Origin: Vicinamibacterales bacterium
GTDB taxonomy: Bacteria > Acidobacteriota > Vicinamibacteria > Vicinamibacterales > CAVVIG01
Direction: 5' to 3'
Assembly (NCBI GenBank): GCA_036268855.1
Contig: DATATJ010000173.1
Span: forward strand, 30,237 to 94,236
DNA length: 64,000 nt
Positions 30,419-42,467 of this stretch are shown one piece after another. The notes below the pieces were generated by a model. That model had not been told where the DNA came from. It did no database searches and saw only the letters and a program-made list of their open reading frames with translations. The translations under genes were made by a program, and so were the position numbers. Every line of letters starts with the position of its first letter. The stretch's first letter is position 1.

Positions 30419-30530
30419 TGCGGTTTCGACATCAGCGTAGACGTAGCGCGACGGCTTTATCCGAGCGTTTCTGGCGCCGCGCGGCGCGCGGCTAAAGCCG
30501 TCGCGCTACATCGAATCGAAAACCGCGCTA
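30419..30530. terminator. long nested inverted repeat at a convergent junction (probable bidirectional terminator or structured RNA)
   Basis: Perfect 17-bp arms GTAGCGCGACGGCTTTA (30443-30459) and TAAAGCCGTCGCGCTAC (30493-30509). Outer arms GCGGTTTCGA/TCGAAAACCGC. The loop contains the palindrome GCGCCGCGCGGCGC. Confidence 0.55.
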
Positions 30531-31283
30531 AGGGTATTCATAAATAATATGCACCCGCACCGGCTTATCTTTGTCGTCCAGCAGGTTGGACGGCCCGGCG
30601 AACTCGAGCAGGCGCCCGGACGCGAGATCGATCGTGACGTCGCTCGGCGTCGAGAAGAAGCGAAAGGCCGCCGAGCTCATTTCGAGCCGGACGGTCAGCA
30701 GGTTGCCCTGGACCGCGCGCTTGTAGATGCGCACGCCGTATGACGTCATCCGCGACGGCACGATCGACTGCGCGTACAGCGATTGCCCACGCTCGAGCGC
30801 GGCGCGCTGGTCGATGATGTACAGCATGATGCCCTGGAACGTCATCAGATCGTCGCGCAGCGCGAGCGTCCGGTGCTCTTCCGCGCCGTGTGCCAGCTGC
30901 TGGGTGATGAGCACGCCGTGACGATCGATCTGCGGCTCGATCGCGTACCGGTAGTTATCGCGATGATCGATCATCCGCGTCGTCGGCAGATATCGCCGGC
31001 TGCCGACGTCCGCCGACAGCTCGGCGATCGGCGCGCCGCTGGCGGCGACATAGCGTGTGTTGATGTCGGTGCGGCCCTTGGCGGTCCGCAGCGTGTGATA
31101 TTCGGTGTACCAGAACGTGCCGGCATCGGTGACGGCGCGTCCGAAGAATGAGGAGTACGCCGGGTCGCCGGGCGCCCGCCCTGTAGAGATGACCTGCCGG
31201 CGGTCGGGCAGCGTCGCGCCGCGAAGGACCGCCGCCGCAGCCGTCATCACGACCAGCCCCCAGCAGACACGCCGCAGCGTCAT
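30528..31283 (-). CDS. hypothetical secreted protein
   Basis: Start at MTLRRVCWGLVVMTAAAAVLRG, sharing 1 nt with the upstream stop (TGATG). No recognisable domain. Confidence 0.6.
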   Translation of the reverse strand: MTLRRVCWGLVVMTAAAAVLRGATLPDRRQVISTGRAPGDPAYSSFFGRAVTDAGTFWYTEYHTLRTAKGRTDINTRYVAASGAPIAELSADVGSRRYLPTTRMIDHRDNYRYAIEPQIDRHGVLITQQLAHGAEEHRTLALRDDLMTFQGIMLYIIDQRAALERGQSLYAQSIVPSRMTSYGVRIYKRAVQGNLLTVRLEMSSAAFRFFSTPSDVTIDLASGRLLEFAGPSNLLDDKDKPVRVHIIYEYP

Positions 31284-32428
31284 CAGAACGTCCGCCTCGC
31301 CACCCACTCTCGCAGCAGGGAGTCCACCACGACGTACCGGTCGGCGTCGCGGGCGATCACATCGTCTCGCACCAGTGCGGCGAGCGAGGCCTGGACCGTC
31401 GATGGTCCGCCGAGGCGATAGCGCGTCCGTGCATCGCCCGACAGGAGCTCGCGTCCCTCCTCCAGCACGACGGCGCGCAGCGCGGCGCGCTGCGCCAGCG
31501 TCAGCCGCTGCCAGAGGGCCTCGTACATGGTCTGCTGTTCCGTCAGCAGGCGGCGGAGCGCGCGATGCAGATCATCGAGCGTCGCCCGACGACGGCCGCT
31601 GGCGCGCAGATGGTCCCACGTTTCGTGGGCGAGCCGCTGCACGTCGTAGGGCAGATTGCCGGCCAGCTCGACCACCGCGTCGCCGAAGCCAGGCTCCGGC
31701 CGCAGGCCCGACCGCGCGAAGCGCGCGTCGATGAACGCCGCGAACTCGTCGGCGGGAATCTTCTCGAGGCGCATGACCGGGCCGGCCTTGTAGAACGGAC
31801 GTTTCGGTCCGAGCATCCGCTCCATCAGGCTCGGCTCGGAGCCGGCGAACACGTATCCGACGTCGCGCTGATGCTGCACCGCCGCGCGCATCGCGTGCTC
31901 GACCGAGCCGCCGTTGAAACCGCCAATCGCCTGGAATTCGTCGAGCGCGACGACCACCTGGCGGCGTCGCGCCTCGGCCAGACGCGCCGGCAGGGCGAAG
32001 ACGTCCTGCGCGAGTCGGGAGACGTCGCGATCCGATCGAACGCTGGGAAACGAGACGGCGAGCGCGCCCGGAGGGGAGCCGTCCGGCGCGTACCGGATCT
32101 CTACGCGTGCGGAGCCGACCGCCTCGCGGAGCCACGTGCGCGCGCGATCCCATTTGGTCTCGGCGGCCATCACGGCCCGGGCGTAGCCTTCGAGGAATGC
32201 GACGTACGAGCTGAAGCTGCTGACGGTCACCTCGACGGTGAGCGCCCCGTGCCTCGCCATCGCGGACAGGGCGTGGCGGATGAGCGACGACTTGCCGTAC
32301 CGCCGGGGTGAGATCAGGAAAATCTTCTGACCGGCCCCGAGATCGGCGACGAGGCGATCGAGCTCGACGACGCGGTTGACGAACGCCGCCACGGGAACGA
32401 CCTCGCCGTAGACGAAAGGATTCTGCAT
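31283..32428 (-). CDS. P-loop ATPase of the Arch_ATPase/ATPase_2 type with C-terminal winged-helix-like region
   Basis: 381 aa. Walker A SPRRYGKSS, Walker B VVVALDEFQ. C-terminal LTLAQRAALRAVV...STVQASLAALVRDDVI. Confidence 0.75.
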   Translation of the reverse strand: MQNPFVYGEVVPVAAFVNRVVELDRLVADLGAGQKIFLISPRRYGKSSLIRHALSAMARHGALTVEVTVSSFSSYVAFLEGYARAVMAAETKWDRARTWLREAVGSARVEIRYAPDGSPPGALAVSFPSVRSDRDVSRLAQDVFALPARLAEARRRQVVVALDEFQAIGGFNGGSVEHAMRAAVQHQRDVGYVFAGSEPSLMERMLGPKRPFYKAGPVMRLEKIPADEFAAFIDARFARSGLRPEPGFGDAVVELAGNLPYDVQRLAHETWDHLRASGRRRATLDDLHRALRRLLTEQQTMYEALWQRLTLAQRAALRAVVLEEGRELLSGDARTRYRLGGPSTVQASLAALVRDDVIARDADRYVVVDSLLREWVARRTF

Positions 32429-32466
32429 TACGGCGCCATGCGTAATGATTACGTTATATCACGTAA
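32428..32466. promoter_or_regulatory. two tandem TTACG-N8-CGTAA inverted repeats, centres 21 bp apart, overlapping the ATPase start codon
   Basis: + strand: TTACG 32428-32432, CGTAA 32441-32445, TTACG 32449-32453, CGTAA 32462-32466. Confidence 0.6.
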
Positions 32467-32489: not shown

Positions 32490-33737
32490 TCAGTAGTACC
32501 TCAGCGGCAGGTCGATCACGACGCGCCGCCGCACCAGGTCGGCCAGCAGGGGGGACAGCGTGCCCGCCGGCAGCGACTCGAGCGCGGCTCGAGGAACCGT
32601 CAGGTCGGCCGGCAGATACTCGCGGCACGCACCGTACTCCTGCTCGTAGTCCTCGGACGGAAAGCGCAGCGTGAGCCGGACGCCGCCGCCCTCTGGCGCC
32701 GTCGCATACAGTGGGTTGACCCGAAACTCGCCGCGCGCTCCAGCCGGCGGGCGAAGCGAATGCGCGGCGAACACGCCGGGGCAGGAGGACGCGACGATCG
32801 TCAGCGCCAGCTCGCCGTGCAACGTCTCCGGCGGCTCGTGCCGCGAGAGATCCAGCGGCCCCTCCCGCACGACGTCCCGAAGCAGCGCCGTCTCGCCAAA
32901 CAGGCGAGGCGACAAATCCTCGAAGAGATCGCGGTACGCCTCGGGCGGCAGCGGCATGCCCGCCGACGGATTCCACTGATGGGCGTTGTGCGTGTGGCTG
33001 ATCACGACGGCCCGGCGTGCGTCGCCCGTGTCCGTGAGCCGGATCATCTCCGACGCGAACAGGCGCTTCGTCCAGATGTAGTGATACGCATCCGAGCAGA
33101 CCGCCACGCGAAATGCGCCGCGCGCGAACGGCAGCGGTGCGTTGCCGTCGCAGCAGACGCCGGCGCAGCCGGGCGCCGTGAACCGCCGGCCGAGCCAGAC
33201 CTTCGAGTAATACAGGTCGGCCAGCACGGGCGGCGGCGTCGAGACGTCGAGCAGCGTGCGCGTCAGGTGACCGGATCCGCCGCAGACGTCGATGGCGCGT
33301 CCGCCGCCTGCCAGCACCGTTTCGGCAACCGCCCGCACGACGGCCTGCGAGACGAGATAGGTCGGATCCGTGAAGCGATAGAGGAAGTAGCCCCCCTCGA
33401 AGTGCGGACCCAGCGCGACGACAATGTCCTTGTAGGTGGCCGTCGGCGAGGCCGCGACCTCGGCGAAGCGCCGCACGCCGTCCTCTTCCTCGATCCCGAG
33501 CATCGCCAACAGCGCCAGATCGGCGCGCCCCGCGTCCAGGTGCTCGCGCGCGGCCACCGCGGAAGGCTCGAGATGGATGACCGGAATGCCGTCCACGACG
33601 GGGTACGCGCAGCAGTGGCAGCCGAGAATGCCGTCGATGACCTCGTCGCCGCGGCGATGGACCCGGCCCGATTCGACGACGCCGAGGCGTCCGCCGCAAA
33701 AAGGACAGCGGAGGATGTCGAGGAGATCGGGCCGCAT
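32490..33737 (-). CDS. class I SAM-dependent methyltransferase with N-terminal Trm112-like zinc ribbon
   Basis: 415 aa. LLDILRCPFCGGRL...GILGCHCCAYPVVDGIPV, then motif-I-like IDVCGGSGHLTRTLL. Confidence 0.75.
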   Translation of the reverse strand: MRPDLLDILRCPFCGGRLGVVESGRVHRRGDEVIDGILGCHCCAYPVVDGIPVIHLEPSAVAAREHLDAGRADLALLAMLGIEEEDGVRRFAEVAASPTATYKDIVVALGPHFEGGYFLYRFTDPTYLVSQAVVRAVAETVLAGGGRAIDVCGGSGHLTRTLLDVSTPPPVLADLYYSKVWLGRRFTAPGCAGVCCDGNAPLPFARGAFRVAVCSDAYHYIWTKRLFASEMIRLTDTGDARRAVVISHTHNAHQWNPSAGMPLPPEAYRDLFEDLSPRLFGETALLRDVVREGPLDLSRHEPPETLHGELALTIVASSCPGVFAAHSLRPPAGARGEFRVNPLYATAPEGGGVRLTLRFPSEDYEQEYGACREYLPADLTVPRAALESLPAGTLSPLLADLVRRRVVIDLPLRYY

Positions 33738-33740
33738 CGA

Positions 33741-34559
33741 TCAGCGTGCCTCTTCAGACGACGACGCCGGCATCGGATCCCCAAGCCATTCGAGCACGGA
33801 CGGCCCGCCGGCGACGGTCGCGGCTCGCCGGAAGTGCTCGGCGCCAAGCCACCGGCGCATGCCGGCCACGTCCACCCATGCGATCGGATTGCGCACGCCG
33901 AGCTGCGTTCGATGGCAGCGCAGCGCGGCGAGCTTGGCTTCGGCCCATGGCCGGACATCGACGACCAGCGTGCACGGTTGGGCGGAGTCGCCGAACGCGT
34001 CGGGCTCGATCCCCCAGAAGCTCGCGTCGGGTGCGCCGCCCTTCGCGCGCGCCTCGTCCACCATCGCGCGGATCGCCCCCTTGGGCATCGTGACGTAATA
34101 AAGCGGCGGGGCCTCCGTGCCGAGCGACCGCAAGGCCGTGTACGTGCGCTCGTGCACGCCGATGTGATCGAGATGCCAGTACAGCCCGTCTTCGCCGAAC
34201 GTGATCACGGCGTCGGGGCGGAACCGGCGGAGCGCGACGACGATTTCGCCGTGCAGCTCGGGCACGTCCGCCCACCGCACGTCGCCATCGGGATGACGGC
34301 AGACGATCAGGTCGCTGATGCCGAGCGCTTCGGCGGCCGTGCGCAGCTCCGCGACGCGTGCGCGCCCCAGATCGCCGTCGGCCACGAGCGCCGGGTCGCT
34401 CACCGATCCCTTCTCGCCGCGGGTCGCGCAGATCAGGACGACGCGCGCGCCCGCGCTGGCTGCGCGGGCGAGCGTCCCGCCGCAGGCAATCGACTCGTCG
34501 TCGGGGTGCGCGAAGATCGCCAGGATGGTGCGGCCCGAGAGGGAGCGATCACCCGGCAC
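33741..34559 (-). CDS. PIG-L/LmbE-family N-acetylglucosaminyl deacetylase
   Basis: 272 aa, GTG start. Signature ILAIFAHPDDESIACGGTLA and HxDH-type block WHLDHIGVHE. Confidence 0.85.
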   Translation of the reverse strand: MPGDRSLSGRTILAIFAHPDDESIACGGTLARAASAGARVVLICATRGEKGSVSDPALVADGDLGRARVAELRTAAEALGISDLIVCRHPDGDVRWADVPELHGEIVVALRRFRPDAVITFGEDGLYWHLDHIGVHERTYTALRSLGTEAPPLYYVTMPKGAIRAMVDEARAKGGAPDASFWGIEPDAFGDSAQPCTLVVDVRPWAEAKLAALRCHRTQLGVRNPIAWVDVAGMRRWLGAEHFRRAATVAGGPSVLEWLGDPMPASSSEEAR

Positions 34560-35586
34560 GATGGGTCTCGACCAGGCGGTGATAGACGGCGATGTACTCC
34601 CGCACCATCCGGTCGATCCCGAAGCGCTCGACGGCGCGGTCCCGGACGCGCCGGCGGTCCAGGTCGAAGACGCGCGGCAGCTGGTTCACCATCTCTTCGA
34701 GGTGCTCGAACACCAGGCCGGTCACGCCGTCGTCCACGATTTCCCGCACGGCGCCGCGATCGAGCGCGGCGACCGGTGTCCCGCAGGCCATCGCCTCGGC
34801 CAGCACGAGCCCGAACGGCTCGCGCGCCTGGATTGGGTAGAGCAGCGCCCGCGCCCCGCCGTACAGCTTCACTTTCGACGGGTAGTCGGCTTCGCCGTAG
34901 TACACGACGTCGGTGCCGTCGACGAGCGGAGCCACTTTCTCGCGATAGTACTCGTCCTCGGCCGCCGCGAGCATCAGCCGGATGCCCAGCCGCTTCGCGA
35001 TCTCGATCGCCTGCAGCACGCCTTTGCCGTCGGTGAAGCGGCCGAGGAAGAGCAGGTAGTCGTCCGGTTTCTCGCGGAACGTGAAGTTGGCGGTGTCGAT
35101 GCCGTGCAGCACGATGTCCACGACGTTCAGGCCGTGCAGGAGGCGTCCCTGCTCTTGCGAGATGGCGACGAATGGCGCCTCAGGATAGCGCGACCAGAGC
35201 TTGATTTCCGCCTCGCTCGGCGAATGATGCAGGGTCTGGACGATCGGCGTCGGCGAGAGCCGCGCGAACGCCAGCGACATCGGGTAGTACGCCGCCTCGT
35301 AGTGGATGATGTCGAATTCGCGCGCGCGCTCGACGGCGGCGGCGAGGTTCAGCATCTCGTAGAGCTCCCACGGCCACATGTTCTCGTCGTGCCAGTAGCC
35401 GTGCGGATACGTGGCGGAGAGCTTCGCGTCCGTCTGCGAGTCGCCGGTGGCGAAGAGTGTGACGTCGTGACCGTGCGCGACGAGCCCCTCGGTGAGCAGC
35501 GACGTCATCAGCTCGACGGAGCCCGATTTCTGCGGCGGAATCGTCGTGGCGACCGGCGCGATGTGCGCGATGCGCAACGGCGTCAT
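34549..35586 (-). CDS. GT4-family (GT-B) glycosyltransferase
   Basis: Start at MTPLRIAHIAPVATTIPPQKSGSVE (ATGA overlap at 35583-35586). C-terminal EPFGLVLAEAMACGTPVAALDRGAVREIV (E-x7-E). Confidence 0.85.
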   Translation of the reverse strand: MTPLRIAHIAPVATTIPPQKSGSVELMTSLLTEGLVAHGHDVTLFATGDSQTDAKLSATYPHGYWHDENMWPWELYEMLNLAAAVERAREFDIIHYEAAYYPMSLAFARLSPTPIVQTLHHSPSEAEIKLWSRYPEAPFVAISQEQGRLLHGLNVVDIVLHGIDTANFTFREKPDDYLLFLGRFTDGKGVLQAIEIAKRLGIRLMLAAAEDEYYREKVAPLVDGTDVVYYGEADYPSKVKLYGGARALLYPIQAREPFGLVLAEAMACGTPVAALDRGAVREIVDDGVTGLVFEHLEEMVNQLPRVFDLDRRRVRDRAVERFGIDRMVREYIAVYHRLVETHRAG

Positions 35587-36701
35587 GACAGCGCGTCCTC
35601 GAGCAGCCGCGGGAGCACGACGTTGGCGTCGAAGTGCTCGCGGGCGATCTCTGCGGCGCGGCGCGCGTGCGCCGGATAGTCGCTGTTGAGGCGATCGATG
35701 CCGGCAAGCGCTTCGTCGGGGCTCGAGAAGGCGAGGAGACCGCAGTCTGACGGCAGATGCGCTGTCCAGCCGGTGTCCTGCACGAGCGCAGGGCGTCCAG
35801 CGGCCAGGTAGCACTCGGTGCGATCGCTGAACCAGCCGCTGCGCGTGGACACGTACGTGTGCTTGGCGACGCCGAATTCCGCGCGCGACCGCAGAATGAA
35901 TTCGCGGTAGTCCCACAGCGTCCGGGAGACTCCCATGGCCGCCACCGTGTCCCAGCCGTGCTCGCGCAGCATCGTCTGCGGACCATTGATCGCCAGCTCG
36001 AACGGCTGCGTCGTGCGCGCCGGCAGATCGATGTACTTCACGAACTCCTGATCCTTGTTGCCGCCGACGTCGGTGAAGCTCTCGATCTGCCAGGTCATCA
36101 CGGTCGTCATGCGATCGCGCGGCGTGAGCGTCGTCGTCCACTGATCGAGCGTGATCGGCTGCCAGGTCTTGCGCCACGTGAAATCCCCGACGGGGATGGT
36201 CGACGCTGCGGTTCCGACGTTCGATCCGAACGTGAACAGGCGGTCGAAGGTTTTGAAGAATGCCACATACCACGGCTCCGCCTTCGCGATCGCGAGCTGG
36301 GTGAACGCTGGGTCCGAATCGATGAAGATCTTACGCGGGATCCGGACGTACTCGTCGCGCCAGAACCACGAGCCGCCCGACAGGTTGATGAACAGGTCTG
36401 CGGTCGCGGCATAGCGCCGGACGGCGTCGGCGCTTTGTCCATGATACGTGCCGTCGTAATTGACGAACGACCAGCGATCGCCGAGCCCGAACGAATCGAG
36501 CGCCTGGTGAATGTACGACGTGCCATAGGAGGGATCGGTGGCCCGCGTGTTGAGCACGGGATCGTACACGCACTCGCCCGTGTCCTCGATGTAGAAGACT
36601 TCGTGGCCGAGCGCCCGCAGGCCCAGGAGGTACATGAGGGAGCACCACGTCACGCCGCCGAAGGGATAACGCGCGATGATGCCGGCGAACAAGATCCTCA
36701 T
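35583..36701 (-). CDS. putative GT-B glycosyltransferase (CgeB/Glyco_trans_1_2-like C-terminus)
   Basis: 372 aa. N-terminus MRILFAGIIARYPFGGVTWCSLMYLLGLRALGHEVFYIED. C-terminus ECYLAAGRPALVQDTGW...GLLAFSSPDEA. The assignment is tentative. Confidence 0.5.
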   Translation of the reverse strand: MRILFAGIIARYPFGGVTWCSLMYLLGLRALGHEVFYIEDTGECVYDPVLNTRATDPSYGTSYIHQALDSFGLGDRWSFVNYDGTYHGQSADAVRRYAATADLFINLSGGSWFWRDEYVRIPRKIFIDSDPAFTQLAIAKAEPWYVAFFKTFDRLFTFGSNVGTAASTIPVGDFTWRKTWQPITLDQWTTTLTPRDRMTTVMTWQIESFTDVGGNKDQEFVKYIDLPARTTQPFELAINGPQTMLREHGWDTVAAMGVSRTLWDYREFILRSRAEFGVAKHTYVSTRSGWFSDRTECYLAAGRPALVQDTGWTAHLPSDCGLLAFSSPDEALAGIDRLNSDYPAHARRAAEIAREHFDANVVLPRLLEDALS

Positions 36702-36729: not shown

Positions 36730-38574
36730 TCACCGCTTCGCCGCCTCGATGAGCTCGTCCACCGTCTCGGGATCATCGAGCGACTTGCCGACCGACAGGC
36801 GGGCGCACATGCGCCGGTACAGATTGCTCGTCGTCAGCAGCTCTTCGTGGCGCCCCTTGGCAGCGATGCGGCCGCCGTCGAGCACGAGGATGCAATCCGC
36901 GTCGCGCACGGTCGAGAGCCGATGGGCGATCACGATCGTCGTGCGGCCGTCGCGCAGACGCCGCAGCGCGGCGAAGACGATCTCCTCCGAGATCGCGTCG
37001 AGCGACGAGGTCGGTTCGTCGAGAATCAGGATCGGCGCATCCTTCAGGATGGCGCGGGCCACGCTCAGCCGCTGACGTTCCCCGCCCGACAGCCCGCCGC
37101 CCGCTTCGGCGATCTCCGTCTCGTAGCCCTTGGGCAGCCGCACGATGAAGTCGTGGGCATGCGCCGCGCGCGCCGCCTGCTCGATCTGATCCTGCGTGGC
37201 GTCGAGGCGCCCGTAGCGCAGGTTGTCGGCGATGGTTCCCGAAAAGAGCACCGGATCCTGCAGCACGATCGCGATCCGATCGCGCAGCGCGCGCACGCGG
37301 TAGCGCTGCACGTCCACGCCGTCGATCAGCACGCGGCCGGTGGTGGCCGTGAAGAACCGCGGAATGAGGCTGACGAGCGTCGTCTTGCCCGCGCCCGTGA
37401 GCCCGACGAGCGCCACGACCTGGCCGGGCTTCGCCTCGAACGCGATGTCGTGCAGCACCTGCGTGCCGTCGGGATACGAGAATCCGACGTTGTCGAACGT
37501 GATCTCGCCGGTGATTCGCGTAGCGTCGATCGCGTCGGGCGCCTCGGCGGTTTCCGGCATGAGCGCGAACATCGCCCGCACCCGCTTGGTGCCCGCGAGC
37601 GCACCCTGGAGTTGTCCGGTGGTGTGCGCGATGGCCGCCAGCGGCCCGTACACCGCCGCGAGATAGCCGATGACCACAGTGAGCTGCCCGATGGTGAGCC
37701 GTCCGCTCATGACGAACCGGCCGCCGACGATCAGCACGAGCGCGGTGCCGAGAATGGTGATGGTGCTCACGACCACGCCGAAGACCGATTGCTGCCACGT
37801 GATCGCGATCCGCGCGGTCATCGTCCGATCGCCCGCGACGCCGTAGCGCATCAGCTCGTGCGGCTCGCGCGCAAAGCTCTTGACGAGGCGCATGGCCCCG
37901 AACGTCTCGTACAGGCGCTGCAGGAGCTTCGATTCGAGCTCCTTCACGCGCTCTTCACGGTTGACGAGCGTGGACGTGTAGTAGCGCAAGCACAAGTACA
38001 GGAACGGCACGACCGTGAGCGACAGCAGCGCGATCGTGACGTTGAGGTACAGCAGCACGCCGAACATCACCGTCAGCGCCGCGATCGATGTGGCGAGCGG
38101 AAAGATGCCGCTCATCACCAGGTTCTCGATCGCGTACGCGTCCACGTCGACGCGGTACACGGCATCGGCCGTACTCGTCGTGATGTGATGATGCAGGCCG
38201 AGCGCCGTCAGGTGCTCGAACAGGCGCTTACGCAGGTCGTACACCAGGCGCTGACCGGTATCGACCTGAACCTGCGTGCCGTACGCCGACACGAGCTGGT
38301 TGACGATCTGCAGTACCACGCCGCCCACCACCACGAGGACGAGCAGGCTGGTCCGGTTGCCCTGCGTGAGATCGTTCACCCAGACCGCGAGGCGTCCGGG
38401 AAACGCTTTGGTGCCGAGCACGTAGTCGATCACGACGGCCAGAGGCCACGGCTGCAGCGCACCGAGGCCGATCTCCGACGCGAGCAGCACGGCGAGCAGT
38501 CCGACACTGCGGCGGTACGGGCGCAGGAACGACAGCGTCCACGGCAGGAGCGGTTGCTGAGCCGGCTCGGTCAT
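36730..38574 (-). CDS. MsbA-like ABC exporter (fused 6-TM domain plus NBD)
   Basis: Start at MTEPAQQPLLPWTLSFLRPYRR (ATGA overlap with the upstream gene). Walker A GLTGAGKTT, signature LSGGERQRL, Walker B ILILDEPTS. Confidence 0.9.
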   Translation of the reverse strand: MTEPAQQPLLPWTLSFLRPYRRSVGLLAVLLASEIGLGALQPWPLAVVIDYVLGTKAFPGRLAVWVNDLTQGNRTSLLVLVVVGGVVLQIVNQLVSAYGTQVQVDTGQRLVYDLRKRLFEHLTALGLHHHITTSTADAVYRVDVDAYAIENLVMSGIFPLATSIAALTVMFGVLLYLNVTIALLSLTVVPFLYLCLRYYTSTLVNREERVKELESKLLQRLYETFGAMRLVKSFAREPHELMRYGVAGDRTMTARIAITWQQSVFGVVVSTITILGTALVLIVGGRFVMSGRLTIGQLTVVIGYLAAVYGPLAAIAHTTGQLQGALAGTKRVRAMFALMPETAEAPDAIDATRITGEITFDNVGFSYPDGTQVLHDIAFEAKPGQVVALVGLTGAGKTTLVSLIPRFFTATTGRVLIDGVDVQRYRVRALRDRIAIVLQDPVLFSGTIADNLRYGRLDATQDQIEQAARAAHAHDFIVRLPKGYETEIAEAGGGLSGGERQRLSVARAILKDAPILILDEPTSSLDAISEEIVFAALRRLRDGRTTIVIAHRLSTVRDADCILVLDGGRIAAKGRHEELLTTSNLYRRMCARLSVGKSLDDPETVDELIEAAKR

Positions 38575-41500
38575 GCGCCGGGCCTCTTCAACGGGACCGG
38601 CACGAACGGCCGCGGGACCAGAATCGGGCCGGACGACGTCTTGGGGATGTTGACGGCGACCACGTTGTCGTTGCTCGAATCGGTGACGTACAACCAGCCC
38701 CGCCGCGGCCCGCTCGCGGCGAACGCGACGCGCGACGGCGCGCCGAACGCCACGCGCCCCTCGTCGCTGACGTTGCGCATGATGCCGTCGGGCCCAACGG
38801 CGCGCACCTGCCCGTTGTAGTAGTCGGCGATGAAAATGGTGACCGCGCCTCCCGACTCCGGCACGATGGCGATTCCGGCCGGGCCGGCGAGGTTCGCAGC
38901 AATCGCCGGACCGTCGTCGCCGCCCGGCCCGAACGTGCCGCTGCCGGCGACCGTCATGATCAGGTGCGACAGCGGATTCACCTTTCGGATGCGCTGGTGG
39001 TGCATGTCGGCGATGTAGATGTCGCCGTTCGGCGCCAGCTGCACGTCGGCCGGCATGTTGAGGTGGGCGGCGGGCGCCGGACCATAGTCGCCGACGTTGT
39101 TGTTGTCGCCAGGCTTGCCGTCGCCGGCGACGGTGTGAATCAGCCCCGTTCGCGAATCGACGACGCGGACGCGGTAGTTCAGGGTGTCCGCGATGTAGAT
39201 GTCGCCGTTCGGGGCGCACGCGACCGCGCTCGGCGTGTTCAATGCCGCTTCGGTCGCCGGCTTGTCGTCGCCGTCGTAGCCGTTGGCGCCCGACCCGGCG
39301 ACGGTGGTGATGATGCGCGTCGGCTTGTCGATGCGGCGAATGCGATCGTTGTGCGAGTCGGCGACGACGAGGTCGCCGTCAGGCGCGATGCAGACGCCGT
39401 CAGGCGTGTCGAGCTGCGCCTTGAGCGCCGGTCCGTTGTCTCCAGAGAAACCAGTCTTGCGGCTGATGCCGACCACAGCGACCGGCGGGCTCGCCTTGCC
39501 GAGCGTGTTCGCCGCGGCGCGGACGATGACGTCGTTGTTGGAGTCGGCGACGTAGAGATCGCCGTTCAGGTCGACCACGATGCCGCCCGGCGCGTCCAGC
39601 CACGCCGACATGGTCGGCCCGTTGGGCCCCGCGGGTCCGCCGGCCTTGGCGCCGATGACGACCTCGGCGATCGCCGCCTGGCGCAGCATCACGGCGCCGG
39701 CGCCGAGCGCGAGAATCATCACGACGAAGATGATCGCGCTGCGCAGGCCGTACACGCGCAGGATCGACGGCGCGATCAGCGGCACGCGCGCCGGGCCCGA
39801 CTTCAGCACCATCATGCCGCCGTCGACCGCGACGCGCTCGATGCCACGGCGCAGAATCGCGGTCACCTGGGCCGTCCGCCACGACGCGAACGCGATGACC
39901 ACGAGCATCAGCGTCGCGGCGATCGCGGCGCCGAGCGGCTGATTCAGCGCAAAGCCGCGGAACGCGGCGACCAGCAGCGCCACGCCGAGCGCGACGGCCG
40001 TGACTACGCCGAAGGTGGTGGGCCGCAGGTGCGTGCTGACGCGCACCAGCGCCTTGCCGCCGGCATGCTCTTCGACGAGCGCACGCACGTCGAGCCAGGC
40101 CCAGCGGCCGACGAAGACGCTGACGTCCCGGTCGTTGGACCATCCCTCGTCGACCTCGACCGAGCGGACTGCCCGTGAACGGCGCAGCCAGTCGGTGAGC
40201 TGCGTGAGGACGCGGTCGGCCGACGTCCACGTCTCGCTCCAGAAGCGATCTTCGGTGACCGTGCCCGAGAGCAGCAGCAGCGCGCGCCCGGCTTCGCGCA
40301 GCGACGGGCTCGGCATGCGGCTGGTCTGCGGCTCGGTCGGGGGCAGCGCGATCTCGGGCGGCGCGAGCACTCCGCGAATGCGGCCGCGGATGCGTGCAAG
40401 CGGCTGGATGAAATGGAGGTACGAGACCATCGCGCGATACCAGAGCCGTCCGCCGGGCAGCGAGGCGACGTCCGATCGCTTCGCATACGCAACGTTCTTC
40501 GCGATGGTGAACGCCATGCCGAGAATGCCGCAGCCCAGGAGCAGGTAGGACGCCCAGAGATGCGCGCGGGTGGCCGCGACGCCGGCGCCCGTGAGCGTCA
40601 GGACGAACGACAGCACCTGCCAGCGGATCGAATGCGGCAGGAATGCAAACGGGTGCACGTCGGTGCGGTACACCGAGGGAAACGCCGCCGTGCCCCAGAC
40701 GCCCGCGTTGATGCGCGTGCCCCAGAGCGATCGCACGAAGGGCAGCGGACTGTAGATGCGCCCGCGCCACAACATGCGCCCGTCGAGAAACTTCTCGGGA
40801 TGGTGCGCCATCAGCCACGTTTCGCCTTCGCCGTAGCCGACCTGCTGACGCCAGTAGGCCTTCACCGAGGAGCGATGGTGGTGCCAGACCAGCGCCGACG
40901 AGGCGAAGCCGATTTTCCAGCCGCGTGCCTGCAGCCGCCAGCACACATCCACATCGTCGCCCGCGCGCAGATAGATGGGGTTGAAGCCGCCGATGGCGAG
41001 GAGGGCCTCGCGGCGGAACGCCATGTTGCAGCCCGGCACGTGCTCGGCGATGCGGTCGTCGAGCAGCACGTGCGTCGGGCCGCCGGGAGCGCGCGCGATG
41101 CACTGCGCGATCGGCGGATCGTCGGGCGGCACGACGTTCGGTCCGCCGGAGCCGACCACGTCGAGCGTCAGGAACGGCTGAATCAGAAATGTGAGCCAGT
41201 CGCGATCCACACGCGTATCGGCGTCCGTATAAGCGACGATGTCGCCGGTCGCCTCCGCGAGGCCCACGTTGCGCGCCGCGCTGAGGCCGCCGTTCGGGAT
41301 GTCGATGACGTGGACGCGCGGATGCGCGCGCCCGATCTCGCCGGTGCGATCCTTCGAGCCGTCGTTGACGAGGATGATCTCGTAGTCGGGATACGTCAGC
41401 TTCTCGAGCGAGGTGAGGTTGTCTTCGAGCGTGTCCGCCGCGTTGTAGGCGCAGACGACGACCGAGACGCGCGGCCAGGTGGCGCGCCGGCCGGCGGGAA

Positions 41501-42428
41501 ACGGCGCATCGGCGAAGGCGGCCGCCACGGCGCGCGCGGCCGGCTTCAGCCGGCGCTCGCGGTCCACGAGGCCGAAGTTCCAGTCCTCGACGGTATTTCC
41601 GCCGCGCCACCATGCGTCGGTCCACGCGAACGCGACGGCGCCGCACGCGCCTTCCTCGAACGCCGCACGGATGTGCATCGAGGTGATAGCGGCCTGTCCG
41701 TCCTCGCCCTCGCGGATCGAGTCGGCGCCCGCCTCCGCCAGCAGGAGCGGCTTGTGCGCGGCGACATGCTGGAGGCGCGCGAGATACGCGCGCAGCTCCG
41801 ACTCGCGATGGAGATAGACGTTGAAGGCGCAGACGTCCAGGAACGAGAGATCCAGAAACTCGGTCGGAGGGAAATTGACGTACGTGAACAGACTCTGCGG
41901 CAGCGCGCCTTTCGCGTCTTCGTACAGCCCGCGGATGAAACGCTCGACCCGCACGCTGCCATGCCAGCGAACCACGCCCGGCGGAATCTCGTTGCCCAGC
42001 GCGAACATCAGGATCGCCGGGTGGTCGCCCAGCGCGCGGACCCGCTCGGTGACGTCGCGGCGGATCTCCTGCTGCAGGCGGCGGTCGTCGAGGAACGCGA
42101 CGTGCTGCGACCACGGCAGGCCGACCATCACACGCAGCCCGTGCTTCGCGGCCTCGTCCAGCAGGTCGTGGCGCGGCGCCGTGTACGTGCGAACGGTGTT
42201 GATGCCGAGGCCCGCCATGAGGCGGAAGTCTTCGGCGATCTGGGGCGGCGACGGAAACTGATAGCCGTCCGCGTCGGGCGCGAAGGTCCCGTACGTCACG
42301 CCCTTGACGAGAAAGCGCGCGTCGCCAAGGCGCAGAAATTTCCCGTCGGCGCTGACGCGCTCGGCTGAGGCCGGCGCCGCCGTGTCGGGGCGCACCTCGG
42401 GGTCGGCCTGAAGAGCAGTAGGGCTCAC
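38571..42428 (-). CDS. 1285-aa fusion protein: clan GH-A-like TIM-barrel hydrolase, GT2 glycosyltransferase, multi-TM region, six NHL repeats
   Basis: GTG start. aa 27-305 has KGVTYG...GINTVRTY...LGNEIP...LLLAEAG. aa 318-545 has VVVCAYN...ILVNDGSKD...YTDAD...GDDVDVCWRL...YWRQQVGYGEG. About 6 hydrophobic segments lie in aa 575-915. aa 945-1260 has the repeats DLYVADSNNDVIVR, DLVVADSHNDRIRRI, DIYIADTLNYRVRVV, DIYIADMHHQRIRKV, IFIADYYNGQVRAV and WLYVTDSSNDNVVAV. Confidence 0.8.
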   Translation of the reverse strand: MSPTALQADPEVRPDTAAPASAERVSADGKFLRLGDARFLVKGVTYGTFAPDADGYQFPSPPQIAEDFRLMAGLGINTVRTYTAPRHDLLDEAAKHGLRVMVGLPWSQHVAFLDDRRLQQEIRRDVTERVRALGDHPAILMFALGNEIPPGVVRWHGSVRVERFIRGLYEDAKGALPQSLFTYVNFPPTEFLDLSFLDVCAFNVYLHRESELRAYLARLQHVAAHKPLLLAEAGADSIREGEDGQAAITSMHIRAAFEEGACGAVAFAWTDAWWRGGNTVEDWNFGLVDRERRLKPAARAVAAAFADAPFPAGRRATWPRVSVVVCAYNAADTLEDNLTSLEKLTYPDYEIILVNDGSKDRTGEIGRAHPRVHVIDIPNGGLSAARNVGLAEATGDIVAYTDADTRVDRDWLTFLIQPFLTLDVVGSGGPNVVPPDDPPIAQCIARAPGGPTHVLLDDRIAEHVPGCNMAFRREALLAIGGFNPIYLRAGDDVDVCWRLQARGWKIGFASSALVWHHHRSSVKAYWRQQVGYGEGETWLMAHHPEKFLDGRMLWRGRIYSPLPFVRSLWGTRINAGVWGTAAFPSVYRTDVHPFAFLPHSIRWQVLSFVLTLTGAGVAATRAHLWASYLLLGCGILGMAFTIAKNVAYAKRSDVASLPGGRLWYRAMVSYLHFIQPLARIRGRIRGVLAPPEIALPPTEPQTSRMPSPSLREAGRALLLLSGTVTEDRFWSETWTSADRVLTQLTDWLRRSRAVRSVEVDEGWSNDRDVSVFVGRWAWLDVRALVEEHAGGKALVRVSTHLRPTTFGVVTAVALGVALLVAAFRGFALNQPLGAAIAATLMLVVIAFASWRTAQVTAILRRGIERVAVDGGMMVLKSGPARVPLIAPSILRVYGLRSAIIFVVMILALGAGAVMLRQAAIAEVVIGAKAGGPAGPNGPTMSAWLDAPGGIVVDLNGDLYVADSNNDVIVRAAANTLGKASPPVAVVGISRKTGFSGDNGPALKAQLDTPDGVCIAPDGDLVVADSHNDRIRRIDKPTRIITTVAGSGANGYDGDDKPATEAALNTPSAVACAPNGDIYIADTLNYRVRVVDSRTGLIHTVAGDGKPGDNNNVGDYGPAPAAHLNMPADVQLAPNGDIYIADMHHQRIRKVNPLSHLIMTVAGSGTFGPGGDDGPAIAANLAGPAGIAIVPESGGAVTIFIADYYNGQVRAVGPDGIMRNVSDEGRVAFGAPSRVAFAASGPRRGWLYVTDSSNDNVVAVNIPKTSSGPILVPRPFVPVPLKRPGA

Positions 42429-42467
42429 GGTATATAGTGCGCCACGCTACGCCGGACGCAACTACTT

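Follow-up and report, generated by a model that had tools for sequence, protein, structure and literature searches.

In Escherichia coli, lexA is preceded by two boxes (CTGT-N8-ACAG and CTGT-N8-CCAG) that start 21 bp apart directly before the ATG in 5,426 of 5,426 complete genomes, and the LexA dimer reads its boxes through a winged-helix domain. A like arrangement is present in a stretch of 64,000 nucleotides from a Vicinamibacterales bacterium (Acidobacteriota; contig DATATJ010000173.1, positions 30,237 to 94,236; hereafter the window), where two palindromic units with 8-bp spacers, also 21 bp apart, stand just before the ATG of a gene for a 381-amino-acid (aa) AAA+ ATPase with a predicted C-terminal winged helix-turn-helix (wHTH) domain. 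This 39-bp element is very probably a protein-binding operator on the ATPase promoter, and the explanation favoured here, at a probability of about 0.6, is that the ATPase's own winged helix would bind the double operator and autorepress its gene, a proposal built on sequence comparison and structural modelling. As in the proposed case, lexA encodes the binder of its own boxes, and the C-terminal domain of the ATPase family matches LexA_DNA_bind in Pfam and PDB comparisons. The two systems differ in the half-site (TTACG here, CTGT in lexA), in the module joined to the DNA reader (an AAA+ ATPase in the candidate binder, a self-cleaving S24 peptidase domain in LexA) and in reach, with no regulon beyond the ATPase gene in the DNA scanned and no sign of a connection with DNA damage.

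Archaeal Orc1/Cdc6 proteins likewise add a C-terminal winged helix to an AAA+ base and lid, and their dyad-symmetric binding sites (ORB) adjoin the protein's own gene. Fold matches of the ATPase to 1W5T, 2QBY, 1FNN and 2V1U (2QBY and 2V1U being DNA-bound) have E-values of 1e-9 to 1e-10 and TM scores of 0.44–0.53; the ATPase is nevertheless not a member of that family, with 12–17% identity and bacterial hosts that use DnaA-type replication. Unlike Orc1/Cdc6 origins, the locus has no AT-rich unwinding element (the AT-rich stretch is the 8-bp spacer), the genomic context is variable, the sites lie on predicted promoter elements and there are no further sites within ~4 kb of the ATPase gene. The best structural matches, SSO1545 (2FNA) and PABY2304 (2QEN), belong to the same Pfam family, PF01637, and are 15–16% identical to the window ATPase. 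Both are structural-genomics proteins for which neither an assigned function nor a DNA target was found in the searched literature, which also yielded no functional study of PF01637, COG1672, DUF234 or AAA+/wHTH autoregulators.

NrdR, a nucleotide-sensing repressor, acts at two phased palindromic boxes that overlap promoters, and its box is conserved across many bacterial phyla; two phased palindromic boxes, here over a predicted promoter, and a motif found in many phyla are also features of the element described here. NrdR is a zinc-ribbon and ATP-cone protein that controls ribonucleotide reductase genes from boxes ~31–32 bp apart, whereas the window ATPase is an AAA+ protein with a wHTH and has the sites at its own gene. 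STAND regulators (MalT; IniR, PMC5760070) share the combination of a P-loop ATPase module and a DNA-binding domain, and SSO1545 served as the template for modelling the ATPase domain of IniR (PMC5760070). MalT and IniR are activators of 800–1,000 aa with sensor repeat domains and a LuxR-type helix-turn-helix (HTH), unlike the 381-aa ATPase with its MarR-like wHTH and sites in a repressor position; the structural model of the window ATPase comprises ATPase, lid and wHTH without an extra domain, and no TPR or sensor Pfam domain was found in the protein. Membership in the STAND regulators, known defence systems or RNA families was rejected.

A double palindrome at the ATPase start codon

On the forward strand, positions 32428–32466 of the window read TTACG GCGCCATG CGTAA TGA TTACG TTATATCA CGTAA, with four pentamers starting at 32428, 32441, 32449 and 32462 that alternate in orientation and form two 5-N8-5 inverted repeats with starts 21 bp apart. 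This agrees with the initial annotation of the window, which had also placed the ATPase ATG (CAT at 32426–32428 for the minus-strand open reading frame, ORF) in the proximal half-site and had recognised that CGTAATG occurs twice; there is one copy per strand (forward 32441–32447; reverse 32432–32426, where its ATG is the ATPase start codon). The arms of the proximal repeat are 7 bp (CATTACG/CGTAATG), longer than had been described, the distal repeat is a 9+9 palindrome with one mismatch, and the conserved half-site, as defined by an ortholog alignment, is the hexamer R-TTACG/CGTAA-Y. There is no third TTACG-N8-CGTAA site in the window (0.00 expected from 100 dinucleotide shuffles), the degenerate form TTAYR-N8-YRTAA occurs at the same two places and no others, and extra matches with at most two mismatches to TTACG-N8-CGTAA are at chance level (9 found versus 9.4 expected). 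The genes on either side of the element, for the ATPase and a 415-aa protein, both run along the minus strand and are separated by 61 bp (GC3 analysis), and this gap is the local GC minimum and includes the most AT-rich 60 bp of the neighbourhood (GC 0.47 versus ~0.70; 67.6% for the window as a whole).

The proximal spacer of the window also holds a three-codon upstream ORF, ATG GCG CCG TAA (32428–32439, minus strand), the stop codon of which overlaps the ATPase ATG (TAATG). Mini-ORFs of this kind are found at five other loci (L022, L108, L109, L101 and L122), and a locus from the same sample with an identical ATPase (L001) differs at three operator bases (CGTAG; spacer CAGAGCGC) and lacks the mini-ORF. 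The mini-ORF over the ATPase start is probably incidental.

Conservation among Vicinamibacteria

Scans of named genomes and metagenomes provided 160 orthologous loci, nearly all from the class Vicinamibacteria of the Acidobacteriota (65–93% protein identity), and 155 upstream regions were aligned with the start codon as the anchor. The pattern TTACG-N8-CGTAA-N3-TTACG-N8-CGTAA specifies 20 bases, of which 15 or more are present in 149 of the 155 regions, including 94 with 19 or 20 bases. The half-sites carry 1.4–2.0 bits of information per position amongst 134 distinct ortholog sequences, with equal conservation of G/C and A/T positions, compared to ~0.1 bit per position for the unconserved 45 bp upstream of the operator. 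In 139 of 151 site pairs the distance from one unit to the next is 21 bp exactly; of the 145 distinct regions, 124 contain precisely two units, and in 13 there are three or four, which likewise keep the phase. By these measures the double site is under strong purifying selection. The initial annotation had argued that two phased operators were unlikely to be chance and had named conservation upstream of orthologs as one way to check the motif, and the recurrence of four half-sites with their 21-bp phase, set in unconserved flanks, answers both points in its favour.

The proximal unit ends 1 nt inside the start codon in 110 of the 149 orthologs and 2–67 bp upstream of it elsewhere. Of the six regions that seem to be exceptions, three contain the double site farther out, 142–197 bp upstream of the start, leaving L029, L030 and L040 as the only orthologs truly without an operator. 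Because the operator-to-start distance varies (−1 to +67 and beyond), the element is independent of the ATG, and the extension of the half-site to CGTAA-Y explains how the ATG fits (Y = T, then G). The overlap with the ATG is incidental.

A large subgroup of orthologs (L009, L014, L016, L018, L103, L106, L113 and similar loci) lacks the canonical ATG, with CGTAAC-G/A in place of CGTAATG at the position that corresponds to 32426–32428 of the window. In these loci an in-frame GTG in the proximal spacer (ACG-GTG-TTT-GAC-GTA-ACG-CAG...) would add five residues and would fall within the operator, with a leader of ~6–8 nt. Tandem copies (at least three and at most eight) of a 5–10-nt unit occur directly upstream of the operator in 29 of 137 Vicinamibacteria loci, including L006, L010, L016, L034, L078, L121 and L130. 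They lie 5–50 bp upstream of the distal operator and the units differ by locus (e.g., six copies of GGAACCT, eight of ACATCCTC or four of CCTACCCGA); the window is without them, as a coding gene ends at that place. A CACTATA(C/G)CACCAA-like sequence is present 60–130 bp upstream of the ATPase start in L017, L029 (3865–3880) and L040, the latter two being among the three operator-less loci.

Overlap with predicted promoter elements

A TAnnnT/C hexamer is present in the distal spacer, which is 75% A+T, in 94 of 127 distinct operators. It occurs in two registers, at offset 7 in 61 operators and at offset 9 in 33 (the class of the window, TGATATAA/TGCTATAA), and takes the form yTATAATm or, as in the window, TG-n-TATAAC. 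In the proximal unit the arms are conserved although the spacer does not resemble a −10. The hexamer would serve as a promoter element, with a predicted transcription start at ~32446, 7 nt past the −10, and a predicted 18-nt leader that corresponds to the proximal unit and has no Shine-Dalgarno sequence. The suggestion in the initial annotation that the gene is regulated separately from the glycan operon upstream gains support from this conserved, predicted −10 and from the variability of the upstream genes. No terminator was found in a scan of the region, and read-through from upstream may therefore occur.

Sites at the genes of distant homologs

Eleven distant homologs (31–39% identity) were picked, on the length of the contig or the name of the organism, before their upstream DNA was viewed, and all 11 are reported. 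Tiled TTAYR-N8-YRTAA sites are present upstream of the start in all of them, within 130 bp in 10 and at 114–129 bp and further in one (L167), and nine have a perfect site compared to 0.09 expected from shuffles of the same upstream DNA. The lineages include Methanophagales, another archaeon, Elusimicrobia, Chloroflexota, Bacteroidota and Margulisiibacteriota, with TTATG-N8-CATAA in the Methanophagales archaeon and TTATA-N8-TATAA in the other archaeon, Elusimicrobia and Margulisiibacteriota. In Chloroflexota a perfect palindrome of 39 bp encloses TTATA-N8-CATAA, and one Bacteroidota genome has TTACG-N8-CGTAA. A half-site or spacer in these regions can be read as coinciding with TATAAT, a Bacteroidota-type ..TTTG box or an archaeal TATA-like run. 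The neighbours of the ATPase genes are mutually unrelated; the sites are tied to the ATPase gene across bacteria and archaea.

The units of the distant homologs are tiled at 15 bp and share 3 bp, as opposed to the 21 bp of the Vicinamibacteria; the 21-bp phasing is lineage-specific and the 5-N8-5 unit universal in the family. A motif that lies over the start codon with a 21-bp phase, as first described, is correct for the window, but the ATG overlap is not essential (the motif is 2–197 bp upstream in some orthologs) and the phase differs in other lineages.

Plasmid-borne members from cultured Bacteroides, Vibrio and Geobacter are still more distant (full-length by profile, E-values of 1e-76 to 1e-85), and each carries, across the promoter region 20–130 bp upstream, a distinct repeated palindrome of its own. 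Differing palindromes are expected if the regulator and operator co-evolve, and a gene-linked palindrome that is kept across domains and drifts only at large protein distance is the expected product of an autoregulator and its operator. On the plasmid of Bacteroides sp. CACC 737 (L177), ATAATCAT/ATGATTAT occurs four times with one copy abutting the ATG; a Vibrio coralliilyticus plasmid (L179) has TAGTATTTA-N3-TAAATACTA and two further direct copies of TAAATACT beside a TTGACA; and Geobacter anodireducens pSD (L178) has TTACGATA-C-TATCGTTA. As these bacteria are cultured, the plasmid palindromes are possible experimental handles.

Linkage of the site to the ATPase gene

The motif was scanned over 1.09 Mb of ortholog-locus DNA, with ~4 kb of flank per locus, in addition to the window. 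All of the 138 perfect and 175 degenerate-form sites in the 1.09 Mb are upstream of the ATPase gene and none occurs elsewhere, such that the wider regulon for which the initial annotation had proposed a search did not emerge from either the ortholog loci or the window. The 254 genes flanking the ATPase gene fall into 69 neighbour families and include no conserved neighbouring regulator gene. The commonest upstream neighbour, the 415-aa gene, adjoins the ATPase in 47 of 111 loci and is partly syntenic with the module, and a 251-aa signal-peptide protein adjoins it in 5 of 133 eligible loci. With neighbours this variable and a site tied to the gene, the ATPase gene and its operator constitute a self-contained module.

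An operon of ATPase and secreted protein as the conserved unit was consequently rejected on the 5 of 133 loci in which the partner is adjacent, and, of the regulated unit originally proposed, the ATPase gene stands and the secreted protein does not. In the window, the 251-aa protein, which has no Pfam, NCBIfam or PADLOC match, is probably co-transcribed with the ATPase as a local passenger outside of the conserved module. Transposon ends, an integron attC site and a replication origin were also considered and rejected, as the surroundings of the gene lack a transposase, an integrase, an unwinding element and any other cluster of sites.

The ATPase and its winged helix

The window ATPase matches PF01637 (ATPase_2) over residues 16–263 with 34.4 bits, above the gathering threshold (cut-off 33.2), and the same family is matched by 58 of 59 members of the wider family (best E-value 5e-18). 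The Walker B motif is VVALDEFQ (residues 158–165), and R42, G45, K46, D163 and F165 are invariant in family alignments. More than 6,400 homologs were found at E ≤ 1e-10, the best 120 clusters being 81–98% identical, and an exhaustive HMMER search returned 3,909 clusters at 50% identity, many of them full-length (~375–385 aa) with 28–43% identity. Members come from archaea and many bacterial phyla, and the ATPase itself is encoded on a soil-metagenome contig from the JGI. The ATPase has no NCBIfam or PADLOC match, and a name from a curated family or a defence system was rejected on these negative results.

An AF2 model based on an alignment that included the wide family (pLDDT 92.4, pTM 0.87) has an AAA+ core, a helical lid and a C-terminal H-H-H-beta-beta-H arrangement, in which the wHTH has a pLDDT of 91–97, dropping to 72 in the last block. 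Foldseek ranks SSO1545 and PABY2304 as the top two matches (TM 0.62–0.68; E-values of 7.5e-14 and 4.9e-13), followed by archaeal Orc1/Cdc6, including DNA-bound complexes, and then RuvB. Amongst the 59 family members, Pfam identifies MarR_2 in seven, LexA_DNA_bind in three and nSTAND1 in 19, and a profile of the last 90 residues matches mostly wHTH regulators in the PDB (the putative regulator 3R0A, AdcR, ZitR, MarR, HosA, SarA and LexA) over the HTH and wing. An L-G-x-x-S-x-V/I-Q-R/K motif in the predicted recognition helix is conserved across phyla. As modelled, the C-terminus is a MarR/LexA-like winged helix. The initial annotation had named the ATPase's own wHTH as a possible binder; with the exclusive linkage of gene and site, the sites at all 11 distant homologs and this predicted fold, it is now the best-supported candidate.

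Proposed mechanism and alternative explanations

In the proposed mechanism, each 18–20-bp unit (R-TTACG-N8-CGTAA-Y) would be the site for one dimer of a winged-helix protein, and the binder would be the gene's own AAA+ product, acting via its MarR/LexA-like C-terminal wHTH. The distal unit would enclose the −10 and the proximal unit would cover the transcription start, the short leader and the ATG, with the two unit centres two helical turns apart on the same face of the DNA. As the units cover all of these elements, their occupancy would block RNA polymerase and result in negative autoregulation, and the nucleotide state of the ATPase could plausibly set affinity or oligomerisation. We infer the promoter assignment, the identity of the binder, the stoichiometry of the dimers, cooperativity, repression as opposed to activation and any role of ATP; cooperative repression by two dimers, as the initial annotation had it, would fit the anatomy of the site, in which the −10 falls in the distal spacer of most operators and the proximal site lies over the predicted +1 and the ATG. 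Conservation of the site from Acidobacteriota to Methanophagales argues that the ATPase itself, and not a lineage-specific factor, would read it.

Several observations weigh against autorepression by the ATPase. The PDB matches of the wHTH are individually weak (E-values of 0.002–1.5), the window protein itself has only a sub-threshold GMT-wHTH match, and no residue of the recognition helix tracks the C-G versus T-A/T-G half-site variants among 10 sequences; in some AAA+ and STAND proteins the winged helix is an intramolecular module and not a DNA reader. The wHTH is intact in the three operator-less orthologs, so the domain is not maintained for this operator alone. No −35 is conserved in the ortholog upstream regions and a simple two-hexamer scan found no full sigma-70 consensus in the region; a full sigma-70 promoter was rejected on these grounds, and the proposal is limited to a −10 or extended −10. 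Since the scanned DNA extends to ~4 kb of flank per locus, a wider regulon or an unlinked regulator is possible. Lastly, the exact composite TTACG-N8-CGTAA-N3-TTACG-N8-CGTAA is present in six IMG/VR viral contigs (Table 1), where ~0.1–0.2 would be expected by a rough estimate, with no member of the ATPase-wHTH family in the DNA examined around the six sites. One type of viral site follows a 773-aa tail-fibre-like gene and one is near a 401-aa P-loop (GAGKST) protein. The viral copies could be sites for a host ATPase-wHTH, sites for an unrelated protein of the same specificity, or chance occurrences driven by duplication.

Some of these points are shared by an explanation in which the operator is genuine but is read by a different, unlinked transcription factor, with the ATPase gene as one member of a regulon and no self-binding. 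Evidence for an operator does not identify its binder, the ~1 Mb of scanned DNA is all around the ATPase gene, and the operator-less orthologs that keep the wHTH and the viral sites without a nearby family member would be accounted for. Such a factor would, however, need to have been inherited together with the gene in both domains of life and to act on this gene alone, as the 5-N8-5 site recurs in at least six phyla, two archaea included, with the ATPase gene as the sole shared component, and there is neither a conserved regulator gene beside the site nor another site in the 1.09 Mb and the window; this explanation is considered unlikely. Slightly less likely again is that the ATPase does bind, but at an ATP-dependent nucleation or loading site comparable to those of Orc1/Cdc6 at ORB and DnaA at DnaA boxes, in which case assembly could remodel the DNA, or activate or insulate transcription, with autoregulation as a by-product. 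The fold, closest to Orc1/Cdc6 and RuvB after SSO1545 and PABY2304, is compatible with loading, as are the three to four phased units at some loci, the 15-bp tiling elsewhere, which suggests filament-like packing, and the position of archaeal orc1 genes next to their own binding sites. Set against this, all of the lineages examined have their sites on predicted core promoter elements and the predicted start, where repressors classically bind, most loci carry two units and no more, and the variable context, without an AT-rich unwinding element or second cluster nearby, is not origin-like.

At the level of RNA, the inverted repeats could fold into small hairpins, either in the leader or in a transcript that reads through, and so regulate translation or termination, with sequestration of the AUG as one possibility. 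The proximal CAUUACG-N8-CGUAAUG could pair with the AUG included, the Shine-Dalgarno sequence is absent and alternative hairpins are in principle conceivable for the alternating arms. The region nonetheless folds with an ordinary energy (z = −0.55 versus shuffles), there is no Rfam match at E-values up to 1 and no terminator, and departures from the consensus arms in the 127 operators are one-sided in 165 cells and compensatory in eight, from which it follows that base identity is conserved and not pairing. The predicted −10 within the distal repeat means that this repeat would not be fully transcribed, the sites are off the start codon in many orthologs, and bacteria and archaea share the element despite their different translation signals. 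A structured RNA leader or riboswitch was rejected, and control by hairpins is very improbable. The least probable explanation does without a dedicated binding protein and invokes chance, or else an intrinsic feature of promoter or composition, for instance an AT-rich promoter that is palindromic by accident. The low local GC and the −10-like hexamer would suit it, but ~0 matches are expected, the G and C positions of the half-sites are conserved like the A and T positions, the 21-bp spacing is kept, the proximal arms are conserved around a spacer that is not −10-like, and the same motif spans the bacterial and archaeal transcription machineries; along with the distant homologs, these observations effectively refute it. 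Autorepression by the ATPase remains the favoured explanation.

Features of the locus and neighbouring genes

The features of the locus are collected in Table 1. Further upstream on the minus strand, a 1,291-aa protein (38571–42446) combines a glycoside hydrolase family 2 TIM barrel, a GT2 glycosyltransferase and C-terminal NHL/teneurin-like beta-propeller repeats, and is part of the upstream glycan cluster with a PIG-L deacetylase (33741–34559) and a glycosyltransferase-like protein (35583–36701). At one distant locus (L181, 2937–3383), the ATPase-wHTH gene is directly followed by a HicB-like antitoxin/HicA toxin pair, an isolated instance that reflects no general association.

Table 1. Coordinates of the double operator, the ATPase gene, its neighbours and the viral composite sites (window positions unless a viral contig is named)
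Feature	Coordinates	Strand	Remarks
Distal operator unit (near-perfect 18-bp palindrome)	32449..32466	-	TTACG-TGATATAA-CGTAA; spacer contains −10-like element
Proximal operator unit	32428..32445	-	TTACG-CATGGCGC-CGTAA; last A is the A of the ATPase ATG
Linker between units (3 bp, TCA)	32446..32448	-	Ortholog linker consensus C/T-C/G-R
Predicted extended −10 (TG-A-TATAAC), within distal operator	32453..32461	-	TG 32461-32460, hexamer 32458-32453
ATPase gene (regulated gene and candidate binder)	31283..32428	-	381-aa AAA+ ATPase, PF01637 ATPase_2, predicted C-terminal winged helix
Walker A/P-loop coding segment	32285..32308	-	Residues 41-48, PRRYGKSS
C-terminal wHTH coding region (predicted)	31286..31519	-	Residues 304-381; predicted recognition helix 342-354 (G-P-S-T-V-Q-A-S...)
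Signal-peptide protein (251 aa)	30528..31283	-	ATG overlaps ATPase stop (TGATG); gene calls overlap by 1 nt
415-aa protein	32490..33737	-	Trm112-like zinc-ribbon N-terminus (residues 1-52), ends ...RYY*; no further recognisable domain
Viral composite site, L171	10643-10681		
Viral composite site, L172	1280-1318		
Viral composite site, L173	3431-3469		
Viral composite site, L174	3367-3405		
Viral composite site, L175	10592-10630		
Viral composite site, L176	11281-11319		

Implications for the ATPase family

Autorepression by phased palindromes follows textbook logic, and the class of mechanism is thus not new. What is new is the pairing, by which an orphan AAA+ family with two structural-genomics structures gains a precise DNA ligand that can be put to the test, together with a predicted regulatory role, and the depth of conservation, from Acidobacteriota to Methanophagales archaea, is unusual for an operator. 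A broader generalisation, held tentatively and at somewhat less than even odds, is that the ~380-aa AAA+-wHTH branch of PF01637 may comprise ancient nucleotide-switched, sequence-specific DNA binders that share the code TTAYR-N8-YRTAA in both prokaryotic domains, each acting on its own promoter. If true, a minimal Orc1/Cdc6-like ATPase would be working as a transcriptional autoregulator, the operator would join a short list of cis-elements conserved in both archaea and bacteria, and phages might carry their copies of the site as decoys or as hijacked inputs. For annotation, the ATPase gene of the window has its own predicted promoter, apart from the upstream glycan cluster. Binding and structural experiments can now be designed for the uncultured Vicinamibacteria, which are abundant soil bacteria, and the family may offer a compact system for how an ATPase cycle gates a winged-helix DNA reader.

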